Of a stretch of 32,000 nucleotides of DNA, positions 1 through 28,766 are shown piece by piece. Source of the stretch: Clostridium kluyveri (lineage in GTDB: Bacteria; Bacillota; Clostridia; Clostridiales; Clostridiaceae); NCBI RefSeq assembly GCF_001902295.1, contig NZ_CP018335.1:1926702-1958701 (forward strand), written 5' to 3'. Numbering within the stretch: position 1 is the stretch's first letter; each line of letters opens with the position of its first letter. The notes beneath the pieces are model-generated. The model was not told the DNA's origin, did no database searches, and saw nothing but the letters and a program-made list of their open reading frames with translations. Both the position numbers and the translations under genes were made by a program.

Positions 1-9
1 ACATATAAG

Positions 10-60
10 AGGCTTAATTTCTCATATTAAAGTATTTGATATGGAGAATTAAGTCTTTTT
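10..60 (+). terminator. Rho-independent terminator of a gene upstream of the window
   Basis: A long imperfect hairpin pairs approx 10-27 with 39-56 (about 17 bp, two bulges, loop 28-38). It runs directly into TTTTT (56-60). Confidence 0.55.
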
Positions 61-173
61 ATATTAACACTAATTCATAGGATATTGAAGTATTTAACAA
101 AAATATTCATGTACTAATATTCAAAGTTTAAGGCTTATTATAAATAATACATTATAAAGAGGAGAGATTTAAT

Positions 174-1007
174 ATGTCAAATGTAACAGCTTTTGCAGGA
201 GTGGATGTTGGCTCATTGGGAACAAAAACAGTAATTTTAGTGGATGGAGAGATTGCTGGATTCAGTATACTTCGTACTGGACCTAATACTGAGGAAAATG
301 GGCTGAAGGGTTTAAATGCTGCACTTGAAAATGCGGGCCTTCAGCGTGAAGATTTAAAGTACATTATTGCTACAGGATATGGCAGGATTTCTGCACCTTA
401 TGCCAATAAAACCGTTACCGAAATAACTTGCCATGCTAAAGGGGCCAATTATGTTCATCCACAGACCCGAACTATTATCGATATGGGAGGGCAGGATTGT
501 AAGGCTATCCGATTGGATGAATATGGTAATGTAACAGATTTTGCTATGAATGATAAGTGTGCTGCAGGAACAGGACGTTTTCTTGAAGTTATGGCAAATG
601 TGTTGAAAGTAACTTTAGATGAATTGGGGCCATTATCTCTGAAAGCAACTGAAATATTGCCTATAAGCAGCACCTGCACTGTATTTGCGGAGTCGGAAAC
701 TGTTTCTTTGTTAGCACGTGGCGAAAAAGCGGAGAATATCATTGTCGGTATTCATCATGCCATTGCCAATAGAATTAGTGGTATGTTTTCAAGGGTTGGG
801 ATTGAAACTGACCTATTTTTCTCTGGAGGGGTAGCAAAGAATATCGGAATGAGAAAAGCATTGGAGGATGTGTTGAAAATCAACATTGCCGCTCCAGAAA
901 AGGATCCTCAATTGGTGGGAGCAATCGGTGCGGCTGTTCTGGCACAAAATGCATGGAAAAAGTTAAAAGCATTGGATAACATCGGAGAACATCCTGTGGC
1001 ATTGTAA
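174..1007 (+). CDS. BcrAD/BadFG-family ATPase; [4Fe-4S] activase of 2-hydroxyacyl-CoA dehydratase-type enzymes (HgdC-like)
   Basis: 277-aa ORF with RBS AAGAGGAG (157-164). It has the N-terminal ASKHA ATPase motif GVDVGSLGTK and the two cluster-ligand Cys contexts typical of HgdC-type activators (NDKCAAGTGRF, SSTCTVFAESE). Confidence 0.85.
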   Translation: MSNVTAFAGVDVGSLGTKTVILVDGEIAGFSILRTGPNTEENGLKGLNAALENAGLQREDLKYIIATGYGRISAPYANKTVTEITCHAKGANYVHPQTRTIIDMGGQDCKAIRLDEYGNVTDFAMNDKCAAGTGRFLEVMANVLKVTLDELGPLSLKATEILPISSTCTVFAESETVSLLARGEKAENIIVGIHHAIANRISGMFSRVGIETDLFFSGGVAKNIGMRKALEDVLKINIAAPEKDPQLVGAIGAAVLAQNAWKKLKALDNIGEHPVAL

Positions 1008-1060
1008 CAAAAAAAAATTGACATTCCAAAATTAATAAAGGAAATAGAAAGGAGAAAAAA

Positions 1061-2236
1061 ATGAGTTTGTTGACACTTGAAAAAATAAATGAGGCGGTAA
1101 AGCATCGTCCCGCAGAACTGGAAAAAGCCAGGGCTGAAGGGAGAAAAGTCGTCGGCTGGTTAAATTATAATGTTCCTGAGGAATTAATTTATGCATTGGA
1201 TTTGATTCCTATACATTTAGGTACTGGAGGAAATGATCGTCTGGTGGAATTGGGAGCACGCTATATTTCAGTAATGAATTGTGTTTTTACTCGCCAGGTG
1301 ATAGGACTTTTTTCAGAAGGTAATGATCCATATATAAAAAATACAGATGTAGTAGTAATAGACGTCACTTGCAAGCAGTTATACCGTGTTGCTGAGATAA
1401 TAAAACATTATTTTTCTATAAACACCGAAATAATTGGAGTTCCTTATAATTTTGATGTTCCTGCAGGTAAAACTTATTTTCGTAATGAAATTAAAGCATT
1501 CACAGAAAAATTAGAGAAAATCGCAGGGAAAAAAATTGAACAGGAAAAACTAGAAAAATCGGTTGAAATCTATAAAGAAATTCGTGAATCCATTAAAAGG
1601 CTTTATAAATGGCAAGCTGAACCTATTGCGCCAATTTCCTGGCGAGAAGTATATAATATCGTTCAGGCAGGATATTATCTTGATAAAGAAATCTATCTAA
1701 ATCTATTAAGAGAACTTCTGACTGAACTCACAGATGCTGTACCCAGCCAGCAAGTTTCGGCAACAGAACCGAGGATTTTTGTTTCCGGGAGCATTATTCC
1801 TCCAGGAGATAGGAAAATATTAGATATAATTGAGGAAAAAGGAGGACGGGTTGTTGTTGACGATCTTTGGTCAGGTTTTGCACCTTATTTTGATACGGAA
1901 ATAGAAGAACCTAGTATTGAGGGAATAAGCGATGCTTATATATTAAGGTATACTCATGCGTCCTTACCTCAGCTTAAGAATGATACAGATAGAAGACTAA
2001 AAAATATTCGCAGACTTATCAAAGATTTTCAGGCCAATGGAGTTTTATTTCACACATTAAGATATTGTGATTCGTTTACTTTCAAGGCAAATGAAACAAA
2101 AAATGTTTTAAAAAACGATGGCATTCCGTTTTTAGAGATTCATACTGAATATGCTGGTTCAGATTATGGAGCCATAGGGACACGAATTGAGGCTTTTGTG
2201 GAAATGTTAAAAGTAAGAACCCTTAATATTGTTTAG
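1061..2236 (+). CDS. 2-hydroxyacyl-CoA dehydratase / benzoyl-CoA reductase family subunit (HgdB/BcrC/BadD-like, HGD-D domain)
   Basis: 391 aa with RBS AAAGGAG (1048-54). The N-terminus (KVVGWLNYNVPEELIYALDLIPIHL) is typical of the family, and scattered Cys residues (MNCVF, DVTCKQ, LRYCDSF) could ligate a cluster. The size matches beta subunits. Confidence 0.75.
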   Translation: MSLLTLEKINEAVKHRPAELEKARAEGRKVVGWLNYNVPEELIYALDLIPIHLGTGGNDRLVELGARYISVMNCVFTRQVIGLFSEGNDPYIKNTDVVVIDVTCKQLYRVAEIIKHYFSINTEIIGVPYNFDVPAGKTYFRNEIKAFTEKLEKIAGKKIEQEKLEKSVEIYKEIRESIKRLYKWQAEPIAPISWREVYNIVQAGYYLDKEIYLNLLRELLTELTDAVPSQQVSATEPRIFVSGSIIPPGDRKILDIIEEKGGRVVVDDLWSGFAPYFDTEIEEPSIEGISDAYILRYTHASLPQLKNDTDRRLKNIRRLIKDFQANGVLFHTLRYCDSFTFKANETKNVLKNDGIPFLEIHTEYAGSDYGAIGTRIEAFVEMLKVRTLNIV

Positions 2237-2252
2237 TATAGGGGTTGGGCAA

Positions 2253-3092
2253 ATGATAAAAATACAAGCAGAAAATATCGAAAAGAGATTTCCTATTAAA
2301 GCCAATCAACGAATTTATGCAAATAGTAATAAAATAGGAGAAATTCAAGTTTTGAAAGATCTGAATCTTTCTATAAAAAAAGGAGAATTTATTACAATCG
2401 TAGGCCCCAGTGGATGTGGCAAGTCTGTATTTCTCGATATGGTTGGAGGATTAACTAAGATGTCTAGTGGAAATGTATTTCTTGATGGAAAGAAAGTAAA
2501 TGGTTCTGATCCTCAGGTAGGGTATGTTTTTCAGCAATATGCTCTTCTACCATGGAGAACGGCTATATCAAATATTGAATACCCTCTGGAAATAAGAGGA
2601 ATTGAACCAGCAAAGCGAAAAGAAAAGGCAAAAAAATTGATATCACTCATCGGATTAAATGGCTTTGATAAATGGCTGCCTTATCAACTTTCTGGAGGAA
2701 TGCAGCAGCGTGTTGCAATTGCAAGATCTCTTTCCACTGATCCTGAGGTATTATTGATGGATGAACCATTTGCTGCCCTTGATGCTCAAACAAGAGAGTT
2801 GCTTCAAGAGGAACTTTTAAGAATTTGGGAAGGGATAAGAAACACTGTTATTTTTGTTACTCATAGTATAGAAGAAGCCATTTTTCTTGCTGACAGAGTG
2901 GTAGTTATGACTGCAAGACCTGGAAGGGTAAAACATATCATTGATATTCACCTCTCAAGGCCAAGAGGGGAAAATACCAGAGCTAGCAAAGAATTTGGAG
3001 CTTATAGACATAAAATTTGGGCTGCTTTAAAGGATGAGGTTAATAAAGCTCAAAAGGATTGGAAGTTATTTGCAGGTAATAATGGAAGATAA
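2253..3092 (+). CDS. ABC transporter ATP-binding protein, NitT/TauT (sulfonate/nitrate/taurine) family
   Basis: Walker A GPSGCGKS, signature LSGGMQQRV and Walker B LLMDEPF are present, with a SsuB/TauB-like context (VFQQYALLPWRTA). I place the start at ATG 2253 (MIKIQAE), not the track's TTG 2229, which overlaps the upstream stop. Confidence 0.85.
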   Translation: MIKIQAENIEKRFPIKANQRIYANSNKIGEIQVLKDLNLSIKKGEFITIVGPSGCGKSVFLDMVGGLTKMSSGNVFLDGKKVNGSDPQVGYVFQQYALLPWRTAISNIEYPLEIRGIEPAKRKEKAKKLISLIGLNGFDKWLPYQLSGGMQQRVAIARSLSTDPEVLLMDEPFAALDAQTRELLQEELLRIWEGIRNTVIFVTHSIEEAIFLADRVVVMTARPGRVKHIIDIHLSRPRGENTRASKEFGAYRHKIWAALKDEVNKAQKDWKLFAGNNGR

Positions 3093-3105
3093 AGGAGGAG
3101 AAAAT

Positions 3106-3987
3106 ATGTTAAATAAAGTGGAGAAAGAACAGAATACTATCTCTTACGATGAAAATTCTAACATGATTTCAGATGAATCCAGAGGTCAATTGATAAGTAA
3201 GATTATTAATCTAAAAGGGAAAATTGGTTCCTTTTTTTGGGGAGTTCCGCTTGTGGTGCTGTTCTTTCTTATATGGGAGATTGCTCCAAGAATTGGGATT
3301 CTTAGTCCCATTTTCTTTCCGCCTTTTTCAAAGGTGGTTCATGCATTATTGGATCTTATTCTAACAGGAGAACTACAAACTAATATCATAGTCAGCCTTT
3401 CTAGGGCTTTTATAGGGTTTTTGTTTGCGGTCATTATAGCTGTACCTTTAGGTTTCATTATGGGACGATATAGTTTATTTGAAAAGGTTATGGATTTATT
3501 GATTCAGGGATTGCGTAATACTTCCCAATTTGCTCTTCTTCCTGTATTTATTATGTTACTTGGTATTGGAGAAGCATCGAAGATCGCAATGACTTTTAAT
3601 GCGGCAGTATGGGTTATTTTAATAAATACTATTAGTGGAGTAAAAGGTATAGATCCTTTATTAATCAAATCCGCAATATCAATGGGAACATCTGATAAAG
3701 AACTTTTGAAAAAAATAATATTTCCAGCAAGTTTTCCATCCATTGTAACTGGAGTCCGTTTGGGTATTAAATCTTCACTTATGTCGGTAATTGCAGCTGA
3801 AATGCTTGGCGCAAAATCAGGAATTGGTTTCCTTATTCAAAATTCACAGCTAACCTATAGAATTCCACAAATGTATGCAGGAATTTTAGTTCTTACCATG
3901 TTAGGAGTGATTCTCAATTATTCTCTTGTTTGGATAGAAAAAAAAGCTACATCTTGGAAGACACAAGATGGAAATGTAACTTTCTAA
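3106..3987 (+). CDS. ABC transporter permease, NitT/TauT family (SsuC/TauC-like)
   Basis: Multi-TM protein with a BPD-transporter-type loop (AAEMLGAKSGIGFLI). ATG 3106 follows a strong RBS AAAGGAGGAG (3091-3100). The track start 3034 lies inside the upstream ATPase gene. Confidence 0.85.
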   Translation: MLNKVEKEQNTISYDENSNMISDESRGQLISKIINLKGKIGSFFWGVPLVVLFFLIWEIAPRIGILSPIFFPPFSKVVHALLDLILTGELQTNIIVSLSRAFIGFLFAVIIAVPLGFIMGRYSLFEKVMDLLIQGLRNTSQFALLPVFIMLLGIGEASKIAMTFNAAVWVILINTISGVKGIDPLLIKSAISMGTSDKELLKKIIFPASFPSIVTGVRLGIKSSLMSVIAAEMLGAKSGIGFLIQNSQLTYRIPQMYAGILVLTMLGVILNYSLVWIEKKATSWKTQDGNVTF

Positions 3988-4024
3988 ATAATATAAAATG
4001 AAATTTAAAAAAGGAGAAAATAAA

Positions 4025-5431
4025 ATGAATAGTAAGTTAGAAACAACAAAGATTTTCAAATTTCCCGAAAGTATAAAAGGAGCTTTTATTAAAACCCCTG
4101 GAATTCATTTCAAAGATGGAACTTATGTGAGTTCAGAAGAGATTTGGGATTTTATGACAGTCGAAGCCCCTATCAGATTTCCTTATGCGTATAGTCTTGA
4201 AAAAAATTATCAAAGTCGGTTATCAAGAGATGTGGAATTCTTTAGTGGAATTAAACATTCATATTTGAACCTAACTTTCAGAGATCGTTTATTGAGAGCT
4301 CACGCCAATGGTACTCCAATAGTTCATGTGCAAGGAGGACAAACAGTTGATCCTTATTTTGCTGCAGGGGCTATTCCAGTTGTTCCAGGACCATTAAGAG
4401 GATGGGCCAGAGATATGGAGGAAGGTTTGGATGTAAGATCAGCAGGCAGACGTGCAATGAAGATTATGGAATCAGGACGTCAGACCATCTCTATAGAATG
4501 TTGTAATAACCCTATTGGTTCAATTGAATCGATCCGTCAAAAACTTGTTCCTGTAGATCTAATTGCACCCTATCTTTGCTTGCGCTGCACGGATATTGCG
4601 TATGTTCTTGAGTCTTATCGAACAAGTATCAAGGACATTCCCTTGCATTTCATAGATTTTCCAGTGACCAGAGATAAGAAATGGACTGTGGAGTATGTAG
4701 CTGAATTGATATATGAATTAGTAAAAAAACTGGGTGATTTAAGGGGTGTTACTATTGCCAATGAAGATCTATGGAAAGAAATTAAACTGGAAAATAGAGG
4801 GCGTAGATTAGCTCGTGAGACGGTGGAAAGCATATGGAAAGCAAAAAAATTTCCTGTCACAAGTACGGATTTATCTAGCATCATTACTTCGGGGAGGTTT
4901 GACCGAGGTGATTCTTTAGCTAGTACAGAATTTTTAGAGCAGGCCAATAAGGAAGTTAAAGAAAGAATCAGTAAGGGGATTAAAGGTGCAGGCCTGTCAG
5001 ATAAACCTGTTAAAATTCTTTCTGTTGGATCCTGTTTTGGACTTAGAGCTGATTTTGTGGAAGAAAAGGGAGGGGTTATCGTTGGTACAGACGATCATCT
5101 AAGTAAGATATATGCAGATGTCGTAGAGTCCGGTGATCCTTATGAGGAAATTGCTAAGTCAATATTATCATATAAATATGAGCAACCTACAGAACAGAGA
5201 GCCCAATATGTCATTGATTTGGTTCGTGAATCTAAAGCTGATGGTGTGGTTTGCGGATATAACTGGGGATGTAATTATCAGTCTGCTTCTTCACGTATGA
5301 TTGCTGATATTGTAAAAAAAGAAACAGGAGTCCCAACAATCAATATTGAAGTTGCAGAATTAGGGTTATTGGAAGGAAATGAGCAAACTCAGAATCGACT
5401 TGAGGCATTTATAGAAATGTTGGATAATTAA
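4025..5431 (+). CDS. 2-hydroxyacyl-CoA dehydratase / benzoyl-CoA reductase family subunit (HgdA/BcrB/BadE-like, HGD-D domain)
   Basis: 468 aa from ATG 4025, with RBS AAGGAG (4011-16). It has family-like segments (GTPIVHVQGGQTVDPYFAAGAIPV; GVVCGYNWGCNYQS) and several conserved-looking Cys residues. The size matches alpha subunits. Confidence 0.75.
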   Translation: MNSKLETTKIFKFPESIKGAFIKTPGIHFKDGTYVSSEEIWDFMTVEAPIRFPYAYSLEKNYQSRLSRDVEFFSGIKHSYLNLTFRDRLLRAHANGTPIVHVQGGQTVDPYFAAGAIPVVPGPLRGWARDMEEGLDVRSAGRRAMKIMESGRQTISIECCNNPIGSIESIRQKLVPVDLIAPYLCLRCTDIAYVLESYRTSIKDIPLHFIDFPVTRDKKWTVEYVAELIYELVKKLGDLRGVTIANEDLWKEIKLENRGRRLARETVESIWKAKKFPVTSTDLSSIITSGRFDRGDSLASTEFLEQANKEVKERISKGIKGAGLSDKPVKILSVGSCFGLRADFVEEKGGVIVGTDDHLSKIYADVVESGDPYEEIAKSILSYKYEQPTEQRAQYVIDLVRESKADGVVCGYNWGCNYQSASSRMIADIVKKETGVPTINIEVAELGLLEGNEQTQNRLEAFIEMLDN

Positions 5432-5522
5432 TATTTATACCCATAAACTTTACTTTGGTAATCAGGGGAGCCTGAGAAAATAAGTTAATATATTAAAGAT
5501 TATAGAGGGAGATGAATAAATA

Positions 5523-6584
5523 ATGTTAAAAAGCAAGAAGTCCATATGGGTTATATCCATTGTTGTTATTATTGCTTTAGTAGTAACAGGCACTTTATTC
5601 TATATTAAAGTGCAAAATAATGCTAAAGCACAGCAAAGCACTAAAGTAGAGGAAAAGGTTAATGTAATCAGAATTGGAAGCACAGCTCCAGGCCATTTTA
5701 AATTTATCTTAAGCCAACAAAAAAAATTGCTGGATGATGAGTTTAAAAAGGATGGTATAAAAATCGAGTATCATACTTTTGATGGTGGACAAAGTGTTAT
5801 GACAGCTTTAGCAACTGGGAGTTTAGATATTGCTTATACCGGAACTGATCCAGCTGTGCGTACTGCTGCTTCAGGAGCAGATGTAAATTTAATAGGAATT
5901 TCAAGTTTTGATAAAGGTGGAGCATCCTACATCGCTGTTAAAAAAGATTCTCCAATAAAATCAGTTAAAGATCTTAAAGGGAAAAAAGTTGCTTTTTTAA
6001 CCGGAACAATGAGACATGCAACTATTGCCAAAGCATTAAAAGCGGAAGGACTTTCTTTAGACGATATTCAGGGAGTTAATCTTGCTTTTGATGCTTCAGG
6101 CCCTGCTTTAATTCGAGGAGATATAGATGCGGTTGTTGAAAGTCTTAGTACTTTTGCGCCTTTGCTAAATACCGATACTATAAGGATTATTCTTGACGGG
6201 TCAAAACATCCAGAGTGGTCAAGCCCAAGTGCTATTTCTGCTAGTGGCAATTTTGTGAGAAAACATCCTACGCTGGTAAAAAGATTATTAAAGGTTGACC
6301 TCGCAACTTCTAAGTGGGCTGATGCTAATTATGAAGAAGCCATTAAGGTTTTTGCAGAAGGGACAAAGCAGACAGCAGAAGCAGTAAAATTGAGCTATCC
6401 AGACAAGAAATTTTATCAAGATCCTAAGATTACAGAAGATGCTATAAATGCTTTTAAATCAGAAGAGGATTTCTTAAAAGAAGCTAAACTTGCAACTGGA
6501 AGCGTAGATTACAAAAAATGGGTAAATAGTAGCTTTGTTGATGAAGTATATGGGGAACAAAGTAAAAAGTCCATAAAGAAATAA
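5523..6584 (+). CDS. ABC transporter substrate-binding protein, NMT1/THI5-SsuA/TauA-like, membrane-anchored
   Basis: 353 aa with an N-terminal hydrophobic anchor (IWVISIVVIIALVVTGTLFYI). The periplasmic-binding-protein-like body (IRIGSTAPGHF..., GSLDIAYTG, KGKKVAFLTGT) is typical of NitT/TauT-family SBPs. Confidence 0.75.
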   Translation: MLKSKKSIWVISIVVIIALVVTGTLFYIKVQNNAKAQQSTKVEEKVNVIRIGSTAPGHFKFILSQQKKLLDDEFKKDGIKIEYHTFDGGQSVMTALATGSLDIAYTGTDPAVRTAASGADVNLIGISSFDKGGASYIAVKKDSPIKSVKDLKGKKVAFLTGTMRHATIAKALKAEGLSLDDIQGVNLAFDASGPALIRGDIDAVVESLSTFAPLLNTDTIRIILDGSKHPEWSSPSAISASGNFVRKHPTLVKRLLKVDLATSKWADANYEEAIKVFAEGTKQTAEAVKLSYPDKKFYQDPKITEDAINAFKSEEDFLKEAKLATGSVDYKKWVNSSFVDEVYGEQSKKSIKK

Positions 6585-6816
6585 AGTAACTTTTGTGCAT
6601 TGGTAAAGCCTATTATTATTGTAATTATGAGATACAAAGGATAATAAAAAATAAGACACTGTATAACTAGATTTTAATAGTCCTATAGGGTCTTACTTTT
6701 TTCTGTATCTCTTATACAGTAGAGTTGTTCAACGGAAAAAGCTACATCAAAGTCTTAAAATAAAAAATTATGTATTAGTGTTAATTTTGTAATACTAAAA
6801 TTAGGAGGAAATTTAG

Positions 6817-8082
6817 GTGAATGTGTTATCAATGCGAGAATTGCTTGGCGAGAAGCTATTAGTGAAGAAAATATCAAATAGAATTATTAAAGGTTTTCCA
6901 GCTTTGAAGCATAAGTATTTTAGATATTTTTTAGCTGGGCAATGTATATCACTTATGGGAACTTGGGTGCAAAGAACAGCTCAGCAGTGGGTTTTTTATG
7001 ATATTACCAAATCAGCATTTTTACTTGGAGTTTTAGGAGTTTTTCAATTTACCCCAATGCTTTTATTTTCTCTTCTTGCAGGTGTTTTCGTTGACAGATT
7101 TCCTAAAAAAAAGCTTTTATTAATAACACAATTTCTACAAATGATGCAGGCGTTTGTATTTGCTATATTAATATGGTCGGGACATATAAAATATTGGCAT
7201 GTTTTAATATTAGCAGGTGTTTATGGTATTGTTCAAACTTTTGATATGCCCACAAGACAGTCGTTTTTTATAGAATTGGTAGGTAAAGATGATTTAATAA
7301 GTGCTATAGGAATGAATTCTACTATTGTAAATATAGCAAGAATATTAGGACCTGCATTTTCAGGTATTATATTATTTAAATTAGGACCTATTTTCTGCTT
7401 TCTTATTAATGGTTTTAGCTTTATAGCGGTTCTTATAGGATTAATTAGTATTAAGTCTTATTATGCAGGCATAAGAAAGAAGACATGTAATATCATGGAT
7501 GATATTGTAAATGGTTTGAAATACATTAAGTCGCAAAAAACAATACTTACCGCAGTAATATCAATGCTTTTTGTTGGGACTTTTGCATTTAATAATGAAG
7601 TTATTATACCTGTTTATGTAAAGGAAGTTTTGCATAAATCTGCTGGAGTTTATAGTACTCTTCTATCGGCTTCTGGGATAGGTGCCCTAATTGGATCTGT
7701 AAAATTTGCTTCAAATACAAAAAGAAGATTAAATGTAATATTCATTAGTAGTTCAATTTTATCCATGTGCTTAATAACTCAAAGTTTTATTCATACATAT
7801 TATGTTTCTATATTAATACTAATAATATATGGATTCTTTAATATAATTTTCATGGCATCAATTAATTTTATAATTCAAATAAATTCACGTGATGAATATA
7901 GAGGAAGAACAGTAAGTGTTTATAGTCTGGTGCTTGTTGGAACAACTCCAATCGGAAATTTATTTGCAGGGACAATAGCTGAATATTTAGGTTCTAATGC
8001 TAGTTTTCTGCTTTGTGGTGTAACAACTCTAGTATTAATGTTTTTTGTTCTTTTTAAATTTAAAGAGGTTTTTTATTCGTGA
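6817..8082 (+). CDS. MFS transporter (MFS_3 / enterobactin-exporter-like)
   Basis: 421 aa with about 12 hydrophobic segments and the motif FAGVFVDRFPKKKLL, typical of this MFS subfamily. GTG 6817 lies 8 nt after AGGAGG (6803-08). An in-frame ATG at 6832 is an alternative start. Confidence 0.75.
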   Translation: MNVLSMRELLGEKLLVKKISNRIIKGFPALKHKYFRYFLAGQCISLMGTWVQRTAQQWVFYDITKSAFLLGVLGVFQFTPMLLFSLLAGVFVDRFPKKKLLLITQFLQMMQAFVFAILIWSGHIKYWHVLILAGVYGIVQTFDMPTRQSFFIELVGKDDLISAIGMNSTIVNIARILGPAFSGIILFKLGPIFCFLINGFSFIAVLIGLISIKSYYAGIRKKTCNIMDDIVNGLKYIKSQKTILTAVISMLFVGTFAFNNEVIIPVYVKEVLHKSAGVYSTLLSASGIGALIGSVKFASNTKRRLNVIFISSSILSMCLITQSFIHTYYVSILILIIYGFFNIIFMASINFIIQINSRDEYRGRTVSVYSLVLVGTTPIGNLFAGTIAEYLGSNASFLLCGVTTLVLMFFVLFKFKEVFYS

Positions 8083-13351: not shown

Positions 13352-13397
13352 GTGTATATACTAATAATATGATTACAGACCAATGGAGGTGGATCAA

Positions 13398-13745
13398 ATG
13401 AAACATAACTATGCTGAATATGTACCAATATTTAAAGCACTTGCAGATGAGACCAGATTAAAAATAGTTGATATGCTTTCCTGTGGTGAGATGTGTGCTT
13501 GTGATATTTTAGAGTTTTTTAATATTACACAGCCAACACTTTCATACCATATGAAGATTTTAACTGATTGTAATATTGTTAACGCCAGAAAAGAAGGTTC
13601 TTGGATGAAATACTCTCTAAACTTACTTAAATTTGAGACATTTGAGAAGTTCGTGAACGACATCAGTAAAAATACTGATGATTGCATATGCAAAAATTAC
13701 TGCAAAAATATTAAAAAATGTTCCGATGATTCTGAGTGCAAATAA
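13398..13745 (+). CDS. arsR: ArsR/SmtB-family metal(loid)-responsive transcriptional repressor
   Basis: Contains FKALADETRLKIVDML, a Cys triad LSCGEMCACDI in the position of the ArsR ELCVCDL As(III) site, and the wHTH ITQPTLSYHMKIL. I prefer ATG 13398 (GGAGGTG 13385-91 lies 6 nt upstream) over ATG 13383. The C-terminal tail is Cys-rich. Confidence 0.85.
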   Translation: MKHNYAEYVPIFKALADETRLKIVDMLSCGEMCACDILEFFNITQPTLSYHMKILTDCNIVNARKEGSWMKYSLNLLKFETFEKFVNDISKNTDDCICKNYCKNIKKCSDDSECK

Positions 13746-13783
13746 GTCTTATAGGAAATTAGAAATTTGGGAGGTTAGTAAAT

Positions 13784-14992
13784 TTGAATAATAACAATTA
13801 TTTCAATTCTGAAAGAAAGCTTAAGAAGAATTCTAAAGTAAAAATAGTAAGAATAAAGCAAAAACCTGATGATACATCTATTTCTTCTAACTATGAAACA
13901 GTACAGAACTCCTGTTGTTGTGGAAGTGAAAGCAAGGAATCATGTGAACACATTACTAAATATGATATAAAACAGAAATGGATAATTGGAGAAATAAGTA
14001 CCTCACAAGGCTGTGTACCATGCATTTCTACTAAATTGTCACTTACTGATATATGGGGTACATGGAAAGTACGCTTTGGAGTAAACAGAATGAATTATAA
14101 AATCAATTCAGGACTCTATGCAGTAGGAACACCTGATAACACAGCCCCTATTCTGGTAACATCAAACTATAAACTGACCTTTGATACTTTGAGAAAAGAG
14201 CTAGATGGGCTTAATGTATGGATAGTGGTACTAGATACGAAAGGGATAAATGTATGGTGTGCAGCAGGTAAGGGCACATTTGGAACTAAGGAACTTGTGA
14301 ACAGAATTTCAAAAGTAAGGCTTTCTCAAATTGTATCACACAAAACGTTAGTACTTCCTCAGCTTGGGGCACCTGGAATAAGTGCTCACCAAGTTACAAA
14401 ACAGTCTGGCTTTAAGGTGGTATATGGTCCTGTGAGAGCTAAAGATATAAAAAAGTTTTTAGAATCAGGAATGAACGCCACAGAAGAAATGCGTGAAGTA
14501 AAGTTTAATATAATTGACAGGGTGGTTCTGACACCAGTTGAATTTGTGAGTACTTTTAAAATTGCCATGTTAGTTTTTGGAATAATGTTTGTTATAAATT
14601 TATTTGCCGTTAATCCCTTTGGAGTAATTGATTTTTATGCATTTATAGGTGCATTGCTGGTGGGCTGTGTTATAACCCCTATATTACTGCCATGGATTCC
14701 AGTAAGGGCTTTTGCTGCAAAAGGCTGGATTATGGGACTTATTTGGGCAGTTACTGTAAATATACTTAATGGTTGGTCTGCAATACCGGAATATGGTGCA
14801 TTAAAAACCATTGCATATTTATTGATTTTGCCATCTGTAGCCTCATATTATGCTATGAACTTTACCGGATCTTCTACTTATACATCTTTTTCAGGTGTAA
14901 TAAAGGAGATGAAGATAGCAGTTCCTGCAATTGCTGTTTCAATAGGACTTGGAGTAGGATTGCTTTTAGTAAACAGCTTTATTCACATTTAA
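13784..14992 (+). CDS. hgcA: HgcA, corrinoid protein of the mercury-methylation pair
   Basis: 402 aa; TTG start 9 nt after GGGAGG (13769-74). The diagnostic cap-helix motif N-V-W-C-A-A-G-K is at residues 156-163 (14249-14272). The C-terminal ~150 residues form about 5 hydrophobic helices, as in HgcA and unlike soluble CFeSP. Confidence 0.85.
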   Translation: MNNNNYFNSERKLKKNSKVKIVRIKQKPDDTSISSNYETVQNSCCCGSESKESCEHITKYDIKQKWIIGEISTSQGCVPCISTKLSLTDIWGTWKVRFGVNRMNYKINSGLYAVGTPDNTAPILVTSNYKLTFDTLRKELDGLNVWIVVLDTKGINVWCAAGKGTFGTKELVNRISKVRLSQIVSHKTLVLPQLGAPGISAHQVTKQSGFKVVYGPVRAKDIKKFLESGMNATEEMREVKFNIIDRVVLTPVEFVSTFKIAMLVFGIMFVINLFAVNPFGVIDFYAFIGALLVGCVITPILLPWIPVRAFAAKGWIMGLIWAVTVNILNGWSAIPEYGALKTIAYLLILPSVASYYAMNFTGSSTYTSFSGVIKEMKIAVPAIAVSIGLGVGLLLVNSFIHI

Positions 14993-15002
14993 GGAGGTTA
15001 TT

Positions 15003-15302
15003 ATGAAGAATAAGTATTTGAAAAATGTCTGTACACTTAAGGTTGATTCAGATAAGTGTGTTGGTTGCGGAAGATGTATTGAGGTCTGCCCGCATAAAGT
15101 ATTTAATCTAAATAAAAGTAAAATTGAACTTGTTAATAAAGACGCTTGTATGGAATGTGGTGCATGTGCAAAAAACTGTGCCTTTAATGCCATTGAGGTA
15201 AAATCAGGCGTTGGATGTGCCTACGCAGTTATAATGGGATGGCTTTTAGGCACTGAACCTACATGTGATTGTTCAGGTGACAACAGCAGTGGATGCTGTT
15301 AA
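15003..15302 (+). CDS. hgcB: HgcB, 2x[4Fe-4S] ferredoxin partner of HgcA
   Basis: 99 aa. Motifs are CVGCGRCIEVCP and CMECGACAKNC (the HgcB-typical CMECGA), an extra Cys72 and a C-terminal vicinal Cys pair (..SSGCC*). The RBS AAGGAGG (14991-97) overlaps the hgcA stop codon. Confidence 0.85.
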   Translation: MKNKYLKNVCTLKVDSDKCVGCGRCIEVCPHKVFNLNKSKIELVNKDACMECGACAKNCAFNAIEVKSGVGCAYAVIMGWLLGTEPTCDCSGDNSSGCC

Positions 15303-15321
15303 ATAGAATGGAGTGACTTAT

Positions 15322-16377
15322 ATGAGTATCGAACCCAAAAACAAATTGTCTTTTTTAGATAAGTTTTTAACACTTTGGATTTTTATTGCAATGGCAATAG
15401 GTATTTTATTAGGTTGGGGAGTTCCAGGTTTATCAGAGGAATTATCTAAATTATCTGTTGGTACTACATCTATACCCATAGCAATTGGACTTATTGTAAT
15501 GATGTATCCCCCACTTGCAAAAGTAAACTATAAGGAGATTGGAAAGGTATTTAGGAATCCAAAAGTTTTAGGATTATCACTTATCCAGAACTGGATTATA
15601 GGACCAATACTAATGTTTATACTTGCAGTAATTTTTTTGAAATCATATCCTGCATTTATGACAGGACTTATATTAATTGGTCTTGCAAGATGTATTGCTA
15701 TGGTTATTGTGTGGAATAGTTTAGCTGACGGCGATACGGAATATGCGGCAGCTCTTGTAGCGTTTAATTCTATATTCCAAATTATATTTTATTCTATATA
15801 CTCTTATATTTTTATTACAGTCTTACCAACTTGGATTGGTCTTACAGGTTACAAGGTAGATATATCAATGGGAGCAGTTGCTTCATCAGTAGCAGTTTAT
15901 CTGGGAATACCATTTGCGTTAGGTATATTAACAAGACTTTTATTAGAACCTAAAATGGGCACTGAATGGTACACAAAAAAGTTTATTCCTAAAATAAGTC
16001 CTTTGGCATTAATTGCTTTATTATTTACTATAATAATTATGTTTACTTATAAGGGGAAATATATAGTGGAGTTACCTATGGATGTGATAAGAATAACTAT
16101 ACCACTTATAGTTTATTTTGCTATTATGTTTACAGTTTCCTTCTTTATTAGCTTTAAAGCTGGTATTGATTATAAAAAAACGACTACTCTTGCATTTACG
16201 GCTGCAAGTAATAACTTTGAACTTGCTATTGCTGTAGCAGTTGCGGTGTTTGGGGTAGAATCTAAAGAGGCATTTACAGCAGTAATAGGACCACTTGTTG
16301 AAGTTCCAATTATGATAGGACTTGTGAATGTAGCTCTTCATTGGGGAAGAAAGTATTTTGGTTTAAAACAAGAATAA
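15322..16377 (+). CDS. acr3: ACR3-family arsenite efflux transporter
   Basis: The N-terminus [23 protein letters not shown], the conserved Cys context [12 protein letters not shown] and the conserved Glu context [13 protein letters not shown] are present, with about 10 TM segments. ATG 15322 lies 8 nt after GGAG (15310-13); the track's GTG 15313 overlaps that RBS. Confidence 0.85.
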
Positions 16378-16444
16378 TTATATTTATTATGTGTTGTGAA
16401 TTTAATTAAGAAATGATAATAAAGTACATGAGAGGAGAAAATTT

Positions 16445-27004: not shown

Positions 27005-27195
27005 AAGTGAATATTTAAGATAGAGGCGCAAAATTTATAAGTAAAGTTTTGGAGGTAAGCACAATGAAGGGACTTGAAAGGAAATTTTGCCGAAGTGTTC
27101 AACAGATGCTTTGATGTTGAATTAACTGGTTTTGTATAAAATATATACAAGACTGTCACAAATATAATTTGTGAAGAGCTATCATTCATTGTGGA
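27005..27195 (+). promoter_or_regulatory. Lysine riboswitch (L-box) aptamer
   Basis: The conserved L-box blocks appear in the correct order: GATAGAGGCGC (27019-29), GGAGG (27051-55), TTGCCGAAG (27087-95), CTGTCAC (27153-59) and GAAGAGCTATC (27173-83). P1 is GATA/TATC plus TGAAT/ATTCA. It lies upstream of a LysP-like permease. Confidence 0.8.
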
Positions 27196-27219: not shown

Positions 27220-27250
27220 CCTTGGGTGTACACTCTCAAGGCTATTTTTA
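27220..27250 (+). terminator. Riboswitch expression-platform terminator
   Basis: CCTTGGGTGT..ACACTCTCAAGG hairpin (27220-41) followed by CTATTTTT. Confidence 0.6.
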
Positions 27251-27308
27251 TGTTTATCTTACTTACTTCACTTATGGGGATTTTGATACCAATAAGGGGG
27301 AGAAAAAA

Positions 27309-28766
27309 ATGGAAAGCTCAGTAGAGCAAAATAATGAGCGTGATAATGAACTAAAAAGAGGACTTAAGACTAGACATTTAAGTATGATTGCCATAGGAGG
27401 AGCTATTGGAACAGGAATATTTTTAGCATTAGGTGCTACTATTAATCAGGCAGGTCCTGGAGGAGCACTAGTAGCTTATGGCTGTATAGGAATTATGGTT
27501 TATTTTTTAATGACGGGCTTAGGAGAAATGGCTACTTATATGCCGGTTTCAGGCTCTTTTGGTGTTTATGCCACTAAATTTGTAGATCCGGCTTTAGGAT
27601 TTGCATTAGGATGGAATTATTGGTACAATTGGGCAATAACTGTAGCTGCAGAAATGGTAGCAGGAGCGCTCATAATGAAATATTGGCTGCCAGGTGTACC
27701 AGCTATTGTGTGGAGTGTGTGTTTTTTAGCTGTAATAGTTTTATTAAATTTATTATCTGCAAGAGCTTATGGAGAATCAGAATTTTGGTTTGCAGGCATC
27801 AAAGTAGTAACCGTTATCGTTTTTATATTAGTAGGAGTAGCAACTATTATAGGCATATTTAATGGGAATCCAGTAGGACTTAAAAATTTTACAGTAGGAG
27901 AAGCACCTTTTGTAGGCGGCTTTAAATCTATATTCTTGGTATTTTTGATTGCAGGTTTTTCTTTCCAGGGTACTGAATTAGTGGGCATAGCTGCGGGAGA
28001 AAGTGAAAATCCAGAAAAAACCATACCAAAAGCTATTAATAGTATATTTTGGAGAATACTAATATTTTATATAGGAACAATATTTGTAGTAGGTGCCATA
28101 ATTCCGTATATGAATGCAGGAGTTGACACAAGTCCTTTTACTCTGGTATTTAAAAAGGCTGGTATAGCAGGAGCTGCATCTCTTATGAATGCGGTTATAT
28201 TGACTTCAGTGCTGTCAGCAGGAAACTCTGGAATGTATGCTTCAACTAGAATGTTGTATTCTATGGCTAAAGATAAGAAAGCACCTGCCTGGCTGGCAAA
28301 AGTTAATTCACGAGGAGTGCCTGTAAATTCATTGATACTTACAACAATAGTAGCATCTGCATGTTTTTTAACAGGGCTTTATGCGGAAAGTACAGTGTAT
28401 GTTTGGCTGGTAGCAGCTTCAGGTCTTGCAGGATTTGTAGCATGGCTTGGTATAGCAATTTGCCATTATCGTTTTAGAAAAGCTTATGTTGCTCAAAATA
28501 GAGATTTTGGAAGATTAAAATATAAGGCTAAATTATTTCCTTTAGGACCTATAATAGCATTGGTACTTTGTATCATAGTTATCTTGGGACAAGGAGTTAC
28601 TTATTTTGAAGCTAACAATATAGATTGGAGTGGAGTAACTTCATCTTATATAGGACTTCCGCTATTTTTAGGATTGTGGATATGGTATAAGAAAAAATAT
28701 AGTACTAAGGTAATAAAGCTAGAAGAAGTAGATTTTGACAGTATTGAAGAGGAAGTAAAATTATAA
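27309..28766 (+). CDS. lysP: APC-family basic amino acid permease, lysine-specific-permease-like
   Basis: 485 aa from ATG 27309, with RBS AAGGGGGAG (27293-301). LKRGLKTRHLSMIAIGGAIGTGIFL, ESEFWFAGIKV and GTELVGIAAGESENPEKTIPKAINSIFWRILIFY are present. The symbol is inferred from the upstream L-box. The track start 27222 lies inside the leader terminator. Confidence 0.8.
   Translation: MESSVEQNNERDNELKRGLKTRHLSMIAIGGAIGTGIFLALGATINQAGPGGALVAYGCIGIMVYFLMTGLGEMATYMPVSGSFGVYATKFVDPALGFALGWNYWYNWAITVAAEMVAGALIMKYWLPGVPAIVWSVCFLAVIVLLNLLSARAYGESEFWFAGIKVVTVIVFILVGVATIIGIFNGNPVGLKNFTVGEAPFVGGFKSIFLVFLIAGFSFQGTELVGIAAGESENPEKTIPKAINSIFWRILIFYIGTIFVVGAIIPYMNAGVDTSPFTLVFKKAGIAGAASLMNAVILTSVLSAGNSGMYASTRMLYSMAKDKKAPAWLAKVNSRGVPVNSLILTTIVASACFLTGLYAESTVYVWLVAASGLAGFVAWLGIAICHYRFRKAYVAQNRDFGRLKYKAKLFPLGPIIALVLCIIVILGQGVTYFEANNIDWSGVTSSYIGLPLFLGLWIWYKKKYSTKVIKLEEVDFDSIEEEVKL

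Follow-up and report, generated by a model that had tools for sequence, protein, structure and literature searches.

A 32,000-nt stretch of the Clostridium kluyveri genome (contig NZ_CP018335.1; "the window") contains, at positions 174-6584, a six-gene operon that very probably encodes an ATP-driven reductase for an imported substrate not bound to coenzyme A (CoA). The putative enzyme consists of an activase and two different HGD-D subunits, alpha and beta, and is encoded together with an ATP-binding cassette (ABC) importer of the NitT/TauT family. Judged by its domains and cluster cysteines, it belongs to the class of ATP-dependent two-component iron-sulfur enzymes that comprises 2-hydroxyacyl-CoA dehydratases (HAD), benzoyl-CoA reductases (BCR) and double-cubane cluster proteins (DCCP) (PMC9351452), and it is an uncharacterised variant within this known class. 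What is new here is a rare, phylogenetically very broad alpha/beta family that is tied to a high-affinity importer and accompanied by no CoA enzymes, which indicates a free, imported substrate. As to the reaction, we propose that imported sulfonates are desulfonated reductively, without oxygen and at the expense of ATP, to supply sulfur for assimilation; we assign this a probability of about 0.45.

The operon consists of six intact open reading frames (ORFs), listed with their Pfam and NCBIfam matches:

174-1007, + strand: activase; BcrAD_BadFG (PF01869), 223.7 bits; TIGR00241, 286.1 bits (cutoff 125.4)
1061-2236, + strand: beta-like HGD-D subunit, 391 aa; PF06050, 279.2 bits
2253-3092, + strand: NitT/TauT-family ABC ATPase; ABC_tran (PF00005)
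3106-3987, + strand: NitT/TauT-family ABC permease; BPD_transp_1 (PF00528)
4025-5431, + strand: alpha-like HGD-D subunit, 468 aa; PF06050, 174.4 bits
5523-6584, + strand: SsuA-family substrate-binding protein (SBP); NMT1; TIGR01728 (SsuA_fam), 251.8 bits (cutoff 163.5)

The start codons at 1061, 2253, 3106, 4025 and 5523 were picked by their ribosome-binding sites and leave intergenic gaps of 53, 16, 13, 37 and 91 nt. The upstream starts at 2229, 3034 and 3998, which give longer ORF versions, have no ribosome-binding site. An earlier note on this DNA, made from the letters alone, had described these six genes in this order, on one strand and with these gaps, and the ORFs, domain matches and start sites agree with it. 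The SBP, which it called membrane-anchored, has either a hydrophobic anchor or a signal sequence at its N-terminus and no lipobox cysteine. Note that residue numbers in alpha refer to the 477-aa version starting at 3998; the start at 4025 gives 468 aa. Identical proteins are encoded in C. kluyveri CP110856.1 (locus L001), from which we read the sequence upstream of the window.

The putative enzyme and the absence of CoA partners

Among proteins of solved structure, the activase matched MbdQ best (249 bits), followed by HadI (237), HgdC (233) and DCCP-R (160). Alignments to MbdQ and HadI showed that both cluster cysteines are kept (NDKCAAGTG and SSTCTVFAE). By these matches the protein is an ASKHA-fold ATPase acting as activase ("archerase"); it has a bridging [4Fe-4S] cluster and would serve as an ATP-driven electron donor. 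The closest structural database matches of beta were DCCP (E 1.7e-34), HadC (4e-26) and BzdN (1e-17). Residues C74, C104 and C336 of beta are invariant in all 57 homologues compared and correspond in the alignment to HadC's three cluster cysteines; beta lacks the four further cysteines of DCCP. Beta is probably the [4Fe-4S] electron-relay subunit.

Alpha matched solved structures weakly by sequence. For its AlphaFold model (pLDDT 87.5), the top Foldseek match was HadB, a substrate-binding subunit; DCCP, MbdN and BzdN/O scored nearly equally (14-18% identity), and the probability was 1.00 for all of these, HadB included. Alpha is 15% identical to HadB and carries a conserved N-terminal extension of ~120 aa. 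Four cysteines (C169, C197, C346 and C425) are invariant in 87 of 87 homologues. Three of them, C169, C197 and C425, are the canonical cluster cysteines; C346 is specific to the family, with no counterpart in HadC or DCCP, and could be a fourth ligand, part of a second metal site or a catalytic thiol. Most family members have CxxC pairs at 194/197 and 343/346, the C. kluyveri protein having Val at 343. Alpha is the signature subunit of the family and probably its substrate-specific catalytic subunit.

Equivalog models for enzymes of known function were missed by a wide margin. The HadC model (NF052456) gave 127.7 bits (cutoff 700), the HadB model (NF052455) 44.6 and 20.8 bits (cutoff 750), BcrC 100 bits (cutoff 421) and BzdN 75.7 bits (cutoff 454); BcrA, BcrD and BzdQ were also below cutoff. 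The DCCP model (NF040772) reached 219.4 bits with beta and 94.3 bits with alpha, compared to a cutoff of 350. We searched both subunits for the seven-cysteine DCCP motif (CX19CX18-19CX29CX166-170CX32-34CX32C). It is absent from both, and C346 of alpha aligns with no DCCP cysteine, excluding a double-cubane cluster in either subunit. Neither subunit grouped with a dehydratase or reductase of known substrate, the predicted fold of alpha being equidistant from HadB, MbdN, BzdN/O and DCCP. [quoted passage not shown] The domain matches, the cluster cysteines and the predicted fold of alpha are in line with the ATP-driven low-potential enzyme proposed in the earlier note, and they place alpha/beta as a separate family within the class. 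We infer ATP-coupled electron flow and the roles of the subunits by homology.

Several characterised systems share parts of this architecture. Like HadBC-HadI and HgdAB-HgdC, the window system has a single homodimeric ASKHA activase and a heterodimeric alpha/beta HGD-D pair, in which beta keeps exactly the three cluster cysteines of HadC. In contrast to HadBC and HgdAB, it has no CoA transferase or 2-hydroxyacid dehydrogenase in its context and is linked to an ABC importer. Unlike HadB, alpha has the N-terminal extension, the fourth invariant cysteine and the CxxC motifs. [quoted passage not shown] However, they have two different ATPase subunits and aryl-CoA substrates, whereas the window has one ATPase gene and no CoA ligase. 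The DCCP/DCCP-R pair of Carboxydothermus acts on a substrate that is not a CoA thioester, as the window system is predicted to do, and DCCP is also the closest solved relative of beta. It differs in that DCCP is a homodimer with a seven-cysteine [8Fe-9S] site, whereas the window system has two different paralogues that always occur as a pair, neither with this motif.

Enzymes of the HAD/BCR/DCCP class catalyse some of the hardest reductions in biology, and to our knowledge all members whose physiological substrate is known use CoA thioesters. We found no gene for a CoA transferase, CoA ligase or acyl-CoA dehydrogenase in the window or within 9-10 kb on either side in L001, and none of these recurs in the related loci (~60 loci from more than 10 phyla, autotrophs included). 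The earlier note had reported the lack of CoA-handling enzymes for the cluster; this holds for the window and also for the 9 kb upstream of it. Alternatively, the enzyme might be a classical 2-hydroxyacyl-CoA dehydratase or benzoyl-CoA-type reductase whose CoA partner is encoded elsewhere and whose transporter imports the free acid. Membership in the HGD-D and BcrAD_BadFG families fits such an enzyme, as does the rich CoA-transferase metabolism of C. kluyveri. The wide misses of the HadC, HadB, BcrC and BzdN models, the lack of a recurrent CoA enzyme across phyla and the single activase gene in place of the two-ATPase module of class I BCR all argue against it, making this the least probable of the readings that we considered.

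Conservation of the enzyme-importer linkage

ORFs were called and clustered in 67 loci around alpha homologues, and co-occurrence was counted in those 40 in which an alpha gene has 4 kb or more of flanking sequence on either side. An activase was encoded near alpha in 37 of the 40 loci and a beta subunit in 34; each part of the NitT/TauT importer was present in 31-32 and a complete importer in 33. Together with the lack of a recurrent CoA enzyme, the 33 complete importers support the earlier note's view of a reductase dedicated to an imported substrate that may not be CoA-activated. The alpha homologues are up to 66% identical to the C. kluyveri protein (Rhodomicrobium vannielii). Their hosts are Bacillota, Negativicutes, Spirochaetes, Chlorobiaceae, Margulisbacteria, Chloroflexi, purple bacteria, Methanoperedens, methanogens, Bathyarchaeota and Altiarchaeia. 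The family is rare: among 1.84 billion representative sequences, 28 clusters at 50% identity reached E <= 1e-30, with a sharp drop in score beyond. A tblastn search of PLSDB with alpha returned no plasmid-borne copy.

The order of the genes differs between clades. The order activase-beta-ATPase-permease-alpha-SBP is confined to a clade of at least 65% identity that spans Bacteria and Archaea (Clostridium, Spirochaetes, Methanoperedens and, in part, Rhodomicrobium). Chlorobiaceae and Margulisbacteria have SBP-activase-beta-alpha-permease-permease-ATPase, and many Bacillota have ATPase-permease-activase-beta-alpha-SBP. Since the order varies while the genes co-occur, it is the linkage that appears to be selected for, and interleaving is a feature of one clade. 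The same families co-occur in dozens of bacterial and archaeal genomes, and the arrangement is thus more than chance. The earlier note had taken the placement of transporter genes between the two subunit genes as an argument for co-expression; the link between enzyme and importer stands, but the interleaved six-gene order is kept only within the clade of at least 65% identity and is replaced by other orders elsewhere.

Methanoperedens loci contain one activase gene, one beta gene and one ATPase-permease pair together with 5-6 tandem alpha-SBP pairs, an arrangement that marks alpha as the substrate-specific subunit. Such tandem arrays, with up to six alpha genes, were observed in Methanoperedens, Methanosarcinales and Altiarchaeia (L020, L021, L032 and L035). 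Most alpha genes in them (five in L021) are followed by an SsuA-family SBP gene of their own, and a TusA/YedF-like gene follows the array. The paralogues within an array are 57-63% identical for alpha and 51-69% for the SBP. Their divergence within a locus showed no positive correlation (n = 12, rho = -0.29); it is the tandem arrangement that supports matched specificities of alpha and SBP.

A subclade of four loci (L038, L039, L059 and L067; Methanoregula, a Bacillota metagenome-assembled genome (MAG), Methanoculleus and Methanospirillum) has no NitT/TauT transporter. Here the activase-beta-alpha genes lie among several Peripla_BP_2 SBPs, FecCD permeases and a BchU-like O-methyltransferase, which suggests a substrate of a different class, perhaps a chelate or tetrapyrrole. 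Transporter genes also flank the system more widely. Homologues of the MFS_3 exporter gene that lies downstream of the C. kluyveri operon were found beside it in 7 of the 67 loci, including Rhodomicrobium; ABC exporter pairs of the SmdAB/MsbA-like type flank it in 19 of the 40, with the C. kluyveri pair located just upstream. An assignment of these pairs as CydDC or siderophore-type transporters was not supported, as they gave generic SmdAB/MsbA-like scores below every equivalog cutoff. A Pfam scan of 87 non-recurrent flanking genes revealed no enriched enzyme family; they comprised just extra transporters, methyltransferases, two MetQ-like lipoproteins and one MetA.

The nearest precedent for the gene association is the linkage of Sao transporters with double-cubane proteins described by Haft (2022 preprint). 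As in this selenocysteine-assisted organometallic (SAO) system, a NitT/TauT-like importer is associated with reductases of the HGD-D family in strict anaerobes. In contrast, the window proteins score below the cutoffs of the SaoA (249 compared to 360), SaoP (158.5 compared to 295) and SaoX (56.5 compared to 300) models, the L001 neighbourhood has no selenoproteins and no SaoL, SaoB, SaoC, SaoD, SaoE or SaoT, and the partner is an alpha/beta pair instead of DCCP. The preprint proposes organometallic substrates, and the window enzyme might release metal reductively from an imported chelate, or process a metal-organic compound or tetrapyrrole. Its ATP-driven, low-potential electron would reduce a complex that resists reduction by other means, and the exporters would recycle the ligand. 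The replacement of NitT/TauT by Peripla_BP_2/FecCD in the subclade above would fit, and so would the TonB-dependent receptor, TonB and ExbB genes near alphaproteobacterial loci, the HMA-domain protein of Chlorobiaceae loci and the recurrence of EntS-like MFS_3 and ABC exporters. However, binding proteins of the NMT1/SsuA family are not known to bind chelates, a cysteine-rich metal site is missing from the window SBP, the Sao models are missed, the exporters are generic and no iron-regulatory evidence was obtained. We consider a metal-chelate substrate distinctly unlikely for the window system.

Some lineages showed further local features. Chlorobiaceae loci (L023, L025, L027, L043, L047, L048 and L075) contain two enzyme sets. 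They also encode a Porin_O_P-like outer-membrane protein beside the SBP, pairs of ABC exporters, a small protein with an HMA domain and a radical SAM protein of the TatD-associated type (TIGR04038, 252 bits). In Methylomusa anaerophila, genes for an Fe-only nitrogenase (anfHDGK; L012:13513-17778) begin 2 kb downstream of the activase-beta-alpha genes. Diazotrophs are common among the host lineages, and this proximity may be coincidence.

The importer and the proposed desulfonation of sulfonates

The best NCBIfam models for the ATPase were SaoA, TauB and NrtCD-like, all below equivalog cutoffs; for the permease they were SaoP, TauC and SsuC. The closest structural database matches of the SBP were E. 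coli SsuA (4.7e-21), other SsuA proteins and TauA. Thus, the SBP is a member of the TIGR01728 family, and the ATPase and permease are of the TauBC/SsuBC type. Transporters of the NitT/TauT family also carry nitrate and cyanate, and DCCP, the closest solved relative of beta, reduces acetylene, hydrazine and azide; the physiological substrate of DCCP is unknown (PMC9351452). The enzyme might similarly reduce a small inorganic or nitrogen-containing molecule (nitrate-, cyanate- or hydrazine-like), for which the Methylomusa locus near anfHDGK could also be cited. The seven-cysteine motif is missing from both subunits, however, the SBP groups with SsuA and TauA and not with NrtA or CynA, and the occurrence of alpha and SBP paralogues as tandem pairs speaks for a family of organic substrates. 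A DCCP-like reaction of this kind therefore appears very unlikely.

Outside the anaerobe clade, the closest homologues of the SBP are found in Rhizobiales and a Rhodocyclaceae MAG (50-60% identity). In Mesorhizobium, proteins 62.5% (ATPase), 62.3% (permease) and 56.7% (SBP) identical to those of the window are encoded in an operon with the order AhpC-like redoxin, FAD_binding_2 flavoprotein (~545 aa), small ferredoxin (~108 aa), ATPase, permease and SBP. The same redoxin-flavoprotein-ferredoxin-transporter operon type was present in all four close SBP homologues checked, and SBP motifs at positions lining the SsuA pocket are invariant between the anaerobe and rhizobial members. The megaplasmid of C. 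metallidurans CH34 encodes a single such pair, which shares 46% identity with the Mesorhizobium flavoprotein and 50% with the ferredoxin. This pair fits Rmet_4334/5 by its position, its uniqueness and its primer matches, and Rmet_4334/5 are the reductase-ferredoxin AsfA/AsfB for aromatic desulfonation (PMC2864759). Published primers for asfA, an established marker of aromatic sulfonate desulfurization (PMC9694294), match the Mesorhizobium and CH34 loci in the expected geometry. None of the AsfA homologues in a large protein search carried the name AsfA.

By these comparisons, the window importer is orthologous to the asfAB-linked transporters. The two groups resemble each other in their three transporter components (57-62% identical), in the invariant pocket motifs of the SBP and in an efflux MFS gene that often lies 3' of the SBP gene. 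They differ in the enzyme: the window and L001 have no AsfA or AsfB, the AhpC-like redoxin is absent from the window, and the activase and alpha/beta stand in their place. The occurrence of the same importer with AsfAB in aerobes and with activase and alpha/beta in anaerobes indicates non-orthologous replacement and the same substrate class. The c7 flavoprotein of some anaerobe loci was rejected as an AsfA orthologue (BLASTP E 7e-4). The asfAB-type operons themselves (rhizobial and Rhodocyclaceae; L077:4651-10020, L079:4582-10035, L082:2645-8035 and L083:5171-12149) have a fixed composition and no adjacent monooxygenase gene, and the AsfA-like protein of S. meliloti gives a full-length, weak match (58 bits) to the model for the adenylylsulfate reductase alpha subunit.

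The earlier note had left substrate and chemistry unknown; sulfonates can now be named as the candidate. In the proposed mechanism, the SBP would capture an organic anion outside the cell, and permease and ATPase would import it. ATP hydrolysis by the activase would drive electrons one at a time into the [4Fe-4S] cluster of beta, from which they would move to the cluster and active site of alpha, where the free substrate, with no CoA thioester, is bound. The likeliest substrate would be a sulfonate, aromatic in this clade, whose radical anion would expel sulfite; a second electron and a proton would complete the reaction, R-SO3- + 2e- + 2H+ -> R-H + HSO3-. Sulfite would then be reduced and assimilated into cysteine, and the neighbouring MFS_3 or ABC exporters would expel the carbon skeleton. 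Read in this way, the system is an anaerobic, non-orthologous replacement of the oxygen-dependent Asf/Ssu route. We infer the substrate class, the reductive C-S cleavage and the fate of the products. That aromatic sulfonates specifically are the substrate is a more doubtful proposition than sulfonates in general. Equally doubtful is the further step of regarding the enzyme as the first archerase-driven enzyme to cleave a C-S bond, an ATP-dependent reductive (aryl)sulfonate desulfonase.

A related arrangement has been described in Rhodobacter capsulatus, where the nitrogenase-like IsrBHDK, an ATP-dependent two-component reductase, works with SsuCAB in anaerobic sulfonate assimilation (PMC11423573). 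As in the proposed system, a two-component metalloreductase that uses ATP and needs no oxygen is encoded with an ABC importer for sulfonates and provides sulfite for assimilation. In contrast, Isr is nitrogenase-like (NifH/NifDK fold) with a radical SAM partner, and is unrelated to HGD-D and BcrAD in sequence and fold. Sulfur genes occur near some homologous systems: cysK in 4 loci, Cys/Met pyridoxal phosphate enzymes in 5 and TusA/YedF-like genes in 4. The Rhodomicrobium locus encodes cysK together with a CymR-like Rrf2 protein, and a SAM riboswitch directly follows one cluster. Clostridium species reportedly assimilate sulfur from alkyl- and arylsulfonates (Denger & Cook 1997), and toluene is said to be formed from 4-tolylsulfonate (Denger et al. 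1996). Our literature search found no paper describing this gene combination, and a paper on the cysteine regulon of C. perfringens made no mention of such genes.

A number of observations weigh against sulfonates. Of the residues that coordinate the sulfonate in X. citri SsuA (Gln36, Gly68, Gly86 and Ser141) and TauA (Gln30, Gly61, Gly79 and Thr132), the window SBP keeps only the two backbone glycines (G89 and G107). The side-chain ligands are not kept, Gln36/Gln30 aligning with A55 and Ser141/Thr132 with M163 (motif GT[MV]RH), and the pocket positions vary widely when the whole family is compared. The CH34 pair was identified as Rmet_4334/5 by position, uniqueness and primer matches, with no locus tag, and the role ascribed to AsfAB is itself putative, which puts the substrate assignment at two removes. 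One subclade uses importers of the FecBCD type, pointing to chelates or tetrapyrroles. Many hosts, such as Chlorobiaceae and methanogens, live with sulfide and might need no sulfur from sulfonates, and none of the neighbourhoods showed a sulfite reductase. In nine loci there is an additional ene-reductase, flavocytochrome-c/KstD-like, with no obvious role in desulfonation. Finally, the Rfam search detected no sulfur-responsive element (S-box or T-box) before the operon, which appears to be controlled by a LacI-type repressor and its leader, more typical of substrate-induced catabolism.

As an alternative, imported aromatic or alpha,beta-unsaturated carboxylates might be reduced as free acids, for catabolism or as an electron sink. 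Examples would be lignin- or humic-derived phenylpropanoids, phenolics or N-heterocycles, which would undergo dearomatisation, dehydroxylation or dehalogenation, with a FAD_binding_2 ene-reductase completing the reaction. In 9 loci a flavocytochrome-c/KstD/vinylphenol-reductase-like flavoprotein is encoded directly 3' of the SBP, 11 Bacillota loci show substrate-style regulation of the LacI type, hosts inhabit aromatic-rich places such as termite guts, peat bogs and humic lakes, and the benzoyl-CoA reductases of the same class dearomatise their substrates. However, no further catabolic genes (ring hydrolases or beta-oxidation) recur in the loci examined, and obligate photoautotrophs, methanogens and anaerobic methanotrophic (ANME) archaea as carriers fit nutrient scavenging better. 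Moreover, the ATP cost per electron makes for a poor electron sink, and the transporter is orthologous to asfAB-linked sulfur-scavenging transporters. We consider the reduction of free aromatic or unsaturated acids unlikely, and prefer desulfonation.

If sulfonates are indeed the substrate, the system would fill a gap of ~30 years concerning the oxygen-free desulfonation of aromatic sulfonates by anaerobes, and would explain the formation of toluene from tosylate by Clostridium. The nitrogenase-like Isr and Mar enzymes would be joined by a second ATP-driven route that is unrelated to them. The large sulfonate pool of peat, humic lakes and guts would become accessible to strict anaerobes, methanogens, ANME archaea and green sulfur bacteria, and the system would bear on how sulfur is cycled in peat, humic lakes and termite guts and by methane-cycling archaea. 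It would also hint at what the enigmatic AsfAB proteins do in aerobes.

Leader, operon boundaries and neighbouring genes

Three further elements border the six genes:

1-64, + strand: 3' part of the operon's 5' leader, with the end of a conserved box and a hairpin plus U-run (assigned by fold and conservation)
~6652-6702, + strand: terminator-like hairpin and U-run 3' of the SBP gene; -17.9 kcal/mol, z = -3.3
6817-8082, + strand: MFS_3 (EntS-like) exporter; PF05977, 200 bits

The earlier note had read a strong terminator at 10-60 as preceding the cluster. A hairpin with a T-run is indeed present at 3-64 (-21.9 kcal/mol, z = -6.3), but it lies inside the 5' leader of the operon itself and is conserved in front of 13 homologous operons. 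In L001 the gene upstream of the operon encodes a LacI-family regulator and lies divergently on the - strand, so the hairpin terminates no upstream gene. A perfect TTGACA-17-TATAAT promoter was found upstream of the hairpin (L001:8734-8762). It is followed by LacI-type palindromes (ACGTTATA/TATAACGT) and then by the hairpin, ~110 nt before the activase start, giving a 5' leader of ~350 nt that contains the hairpin. The C. kluyveri LacI protein was rejected as an orthologue of the LacI encoded beside the Mesorhizobium operon, as only the HTH region aligns.

Before all 13 operons a conserved box, GCTGACT-N7-12-AGAGGC, abuts the hairpin and U-run; the C. kluyveri version, GCTCACT...AGAGGC, begins 8 nt before the window. 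The hairpin covaries, with compensatory changes in 7 of 12 stem pairs across the 13 sites. These come from Clostridia and Negativicutes, Methylomusa having two, which precede the transporter genes and the enzyme genes, respectively (window 1-64, equivalent to a site within L001:8734-9000; L012:4014 and 6813; L013:1582; L014:6064; L037:5724; L045:3515; L049:3752; L050:6242; L054:5401; L055:6244; L057:6182; L069:6600). The elements sit downstream of near-consensus sigma-70 promoters and TTACGTAA/ACGTTATA LacI-type palindromes. At gathering thresholds, no Rfam family matched the leader in the window or in 15 related loci, ruling out a known riboswitch there; the sole matches were a lysine riboswitch elsewhere in the window and, in another locus, the SAM riboswitch downstream of one cluster. 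The hairpin is most likely an attenuator in the operon's own leader, making the leader a candidate new attenuator or antiterminator element.

At the 3' end, the hairpin at ~6652-6702 closes the six-gene unit, and the six genes form one operon. The MFS_3 gene beyond it is probably an accessory gene on a separate transcript, and the exporter may expel the desulfonated product. Together with the LacI regulator and the ABC exporter pair, it belongs to the conserved accessory genes that lie outside the six-gene cluster described in the earlier note. The 9 kb upstream of the window in L001 contain the divergent LacI-family regulator, two ABC exporter genes and unrelated genes. Downstream of the operon, the window contains, besides the MFS_3 gene, genes for an amino-acid permease, a hydrolase, a flavodoxin and a DUF362/ferredoxin protein, and unrelated genes.

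A 95-aa ORF antisense to the activase gene (455-742, - strand) recurs in homologous loci. It was rejected as a gene, being an artefact conserved only through the conservation of the activase; in five loci it had displaced the true activase gene in greedy ORF picking. Elsewhere in the window, the lysine riboswitch (27013-27189; RF00168, 115.5 bits) immediately precedes the gene for an amino-acid permease (27222-28766). At 13383-18094, the gene for an ArsR-family regulator is followed by those for a protein that contains a partial CdhD-like domain, a transporter of the SBF/ACR3 type and a flavoprotein that resembles CoA-disulfide reductase and is fused to a rhodanese domain; together they may form a metalloid or persulfide stress module.

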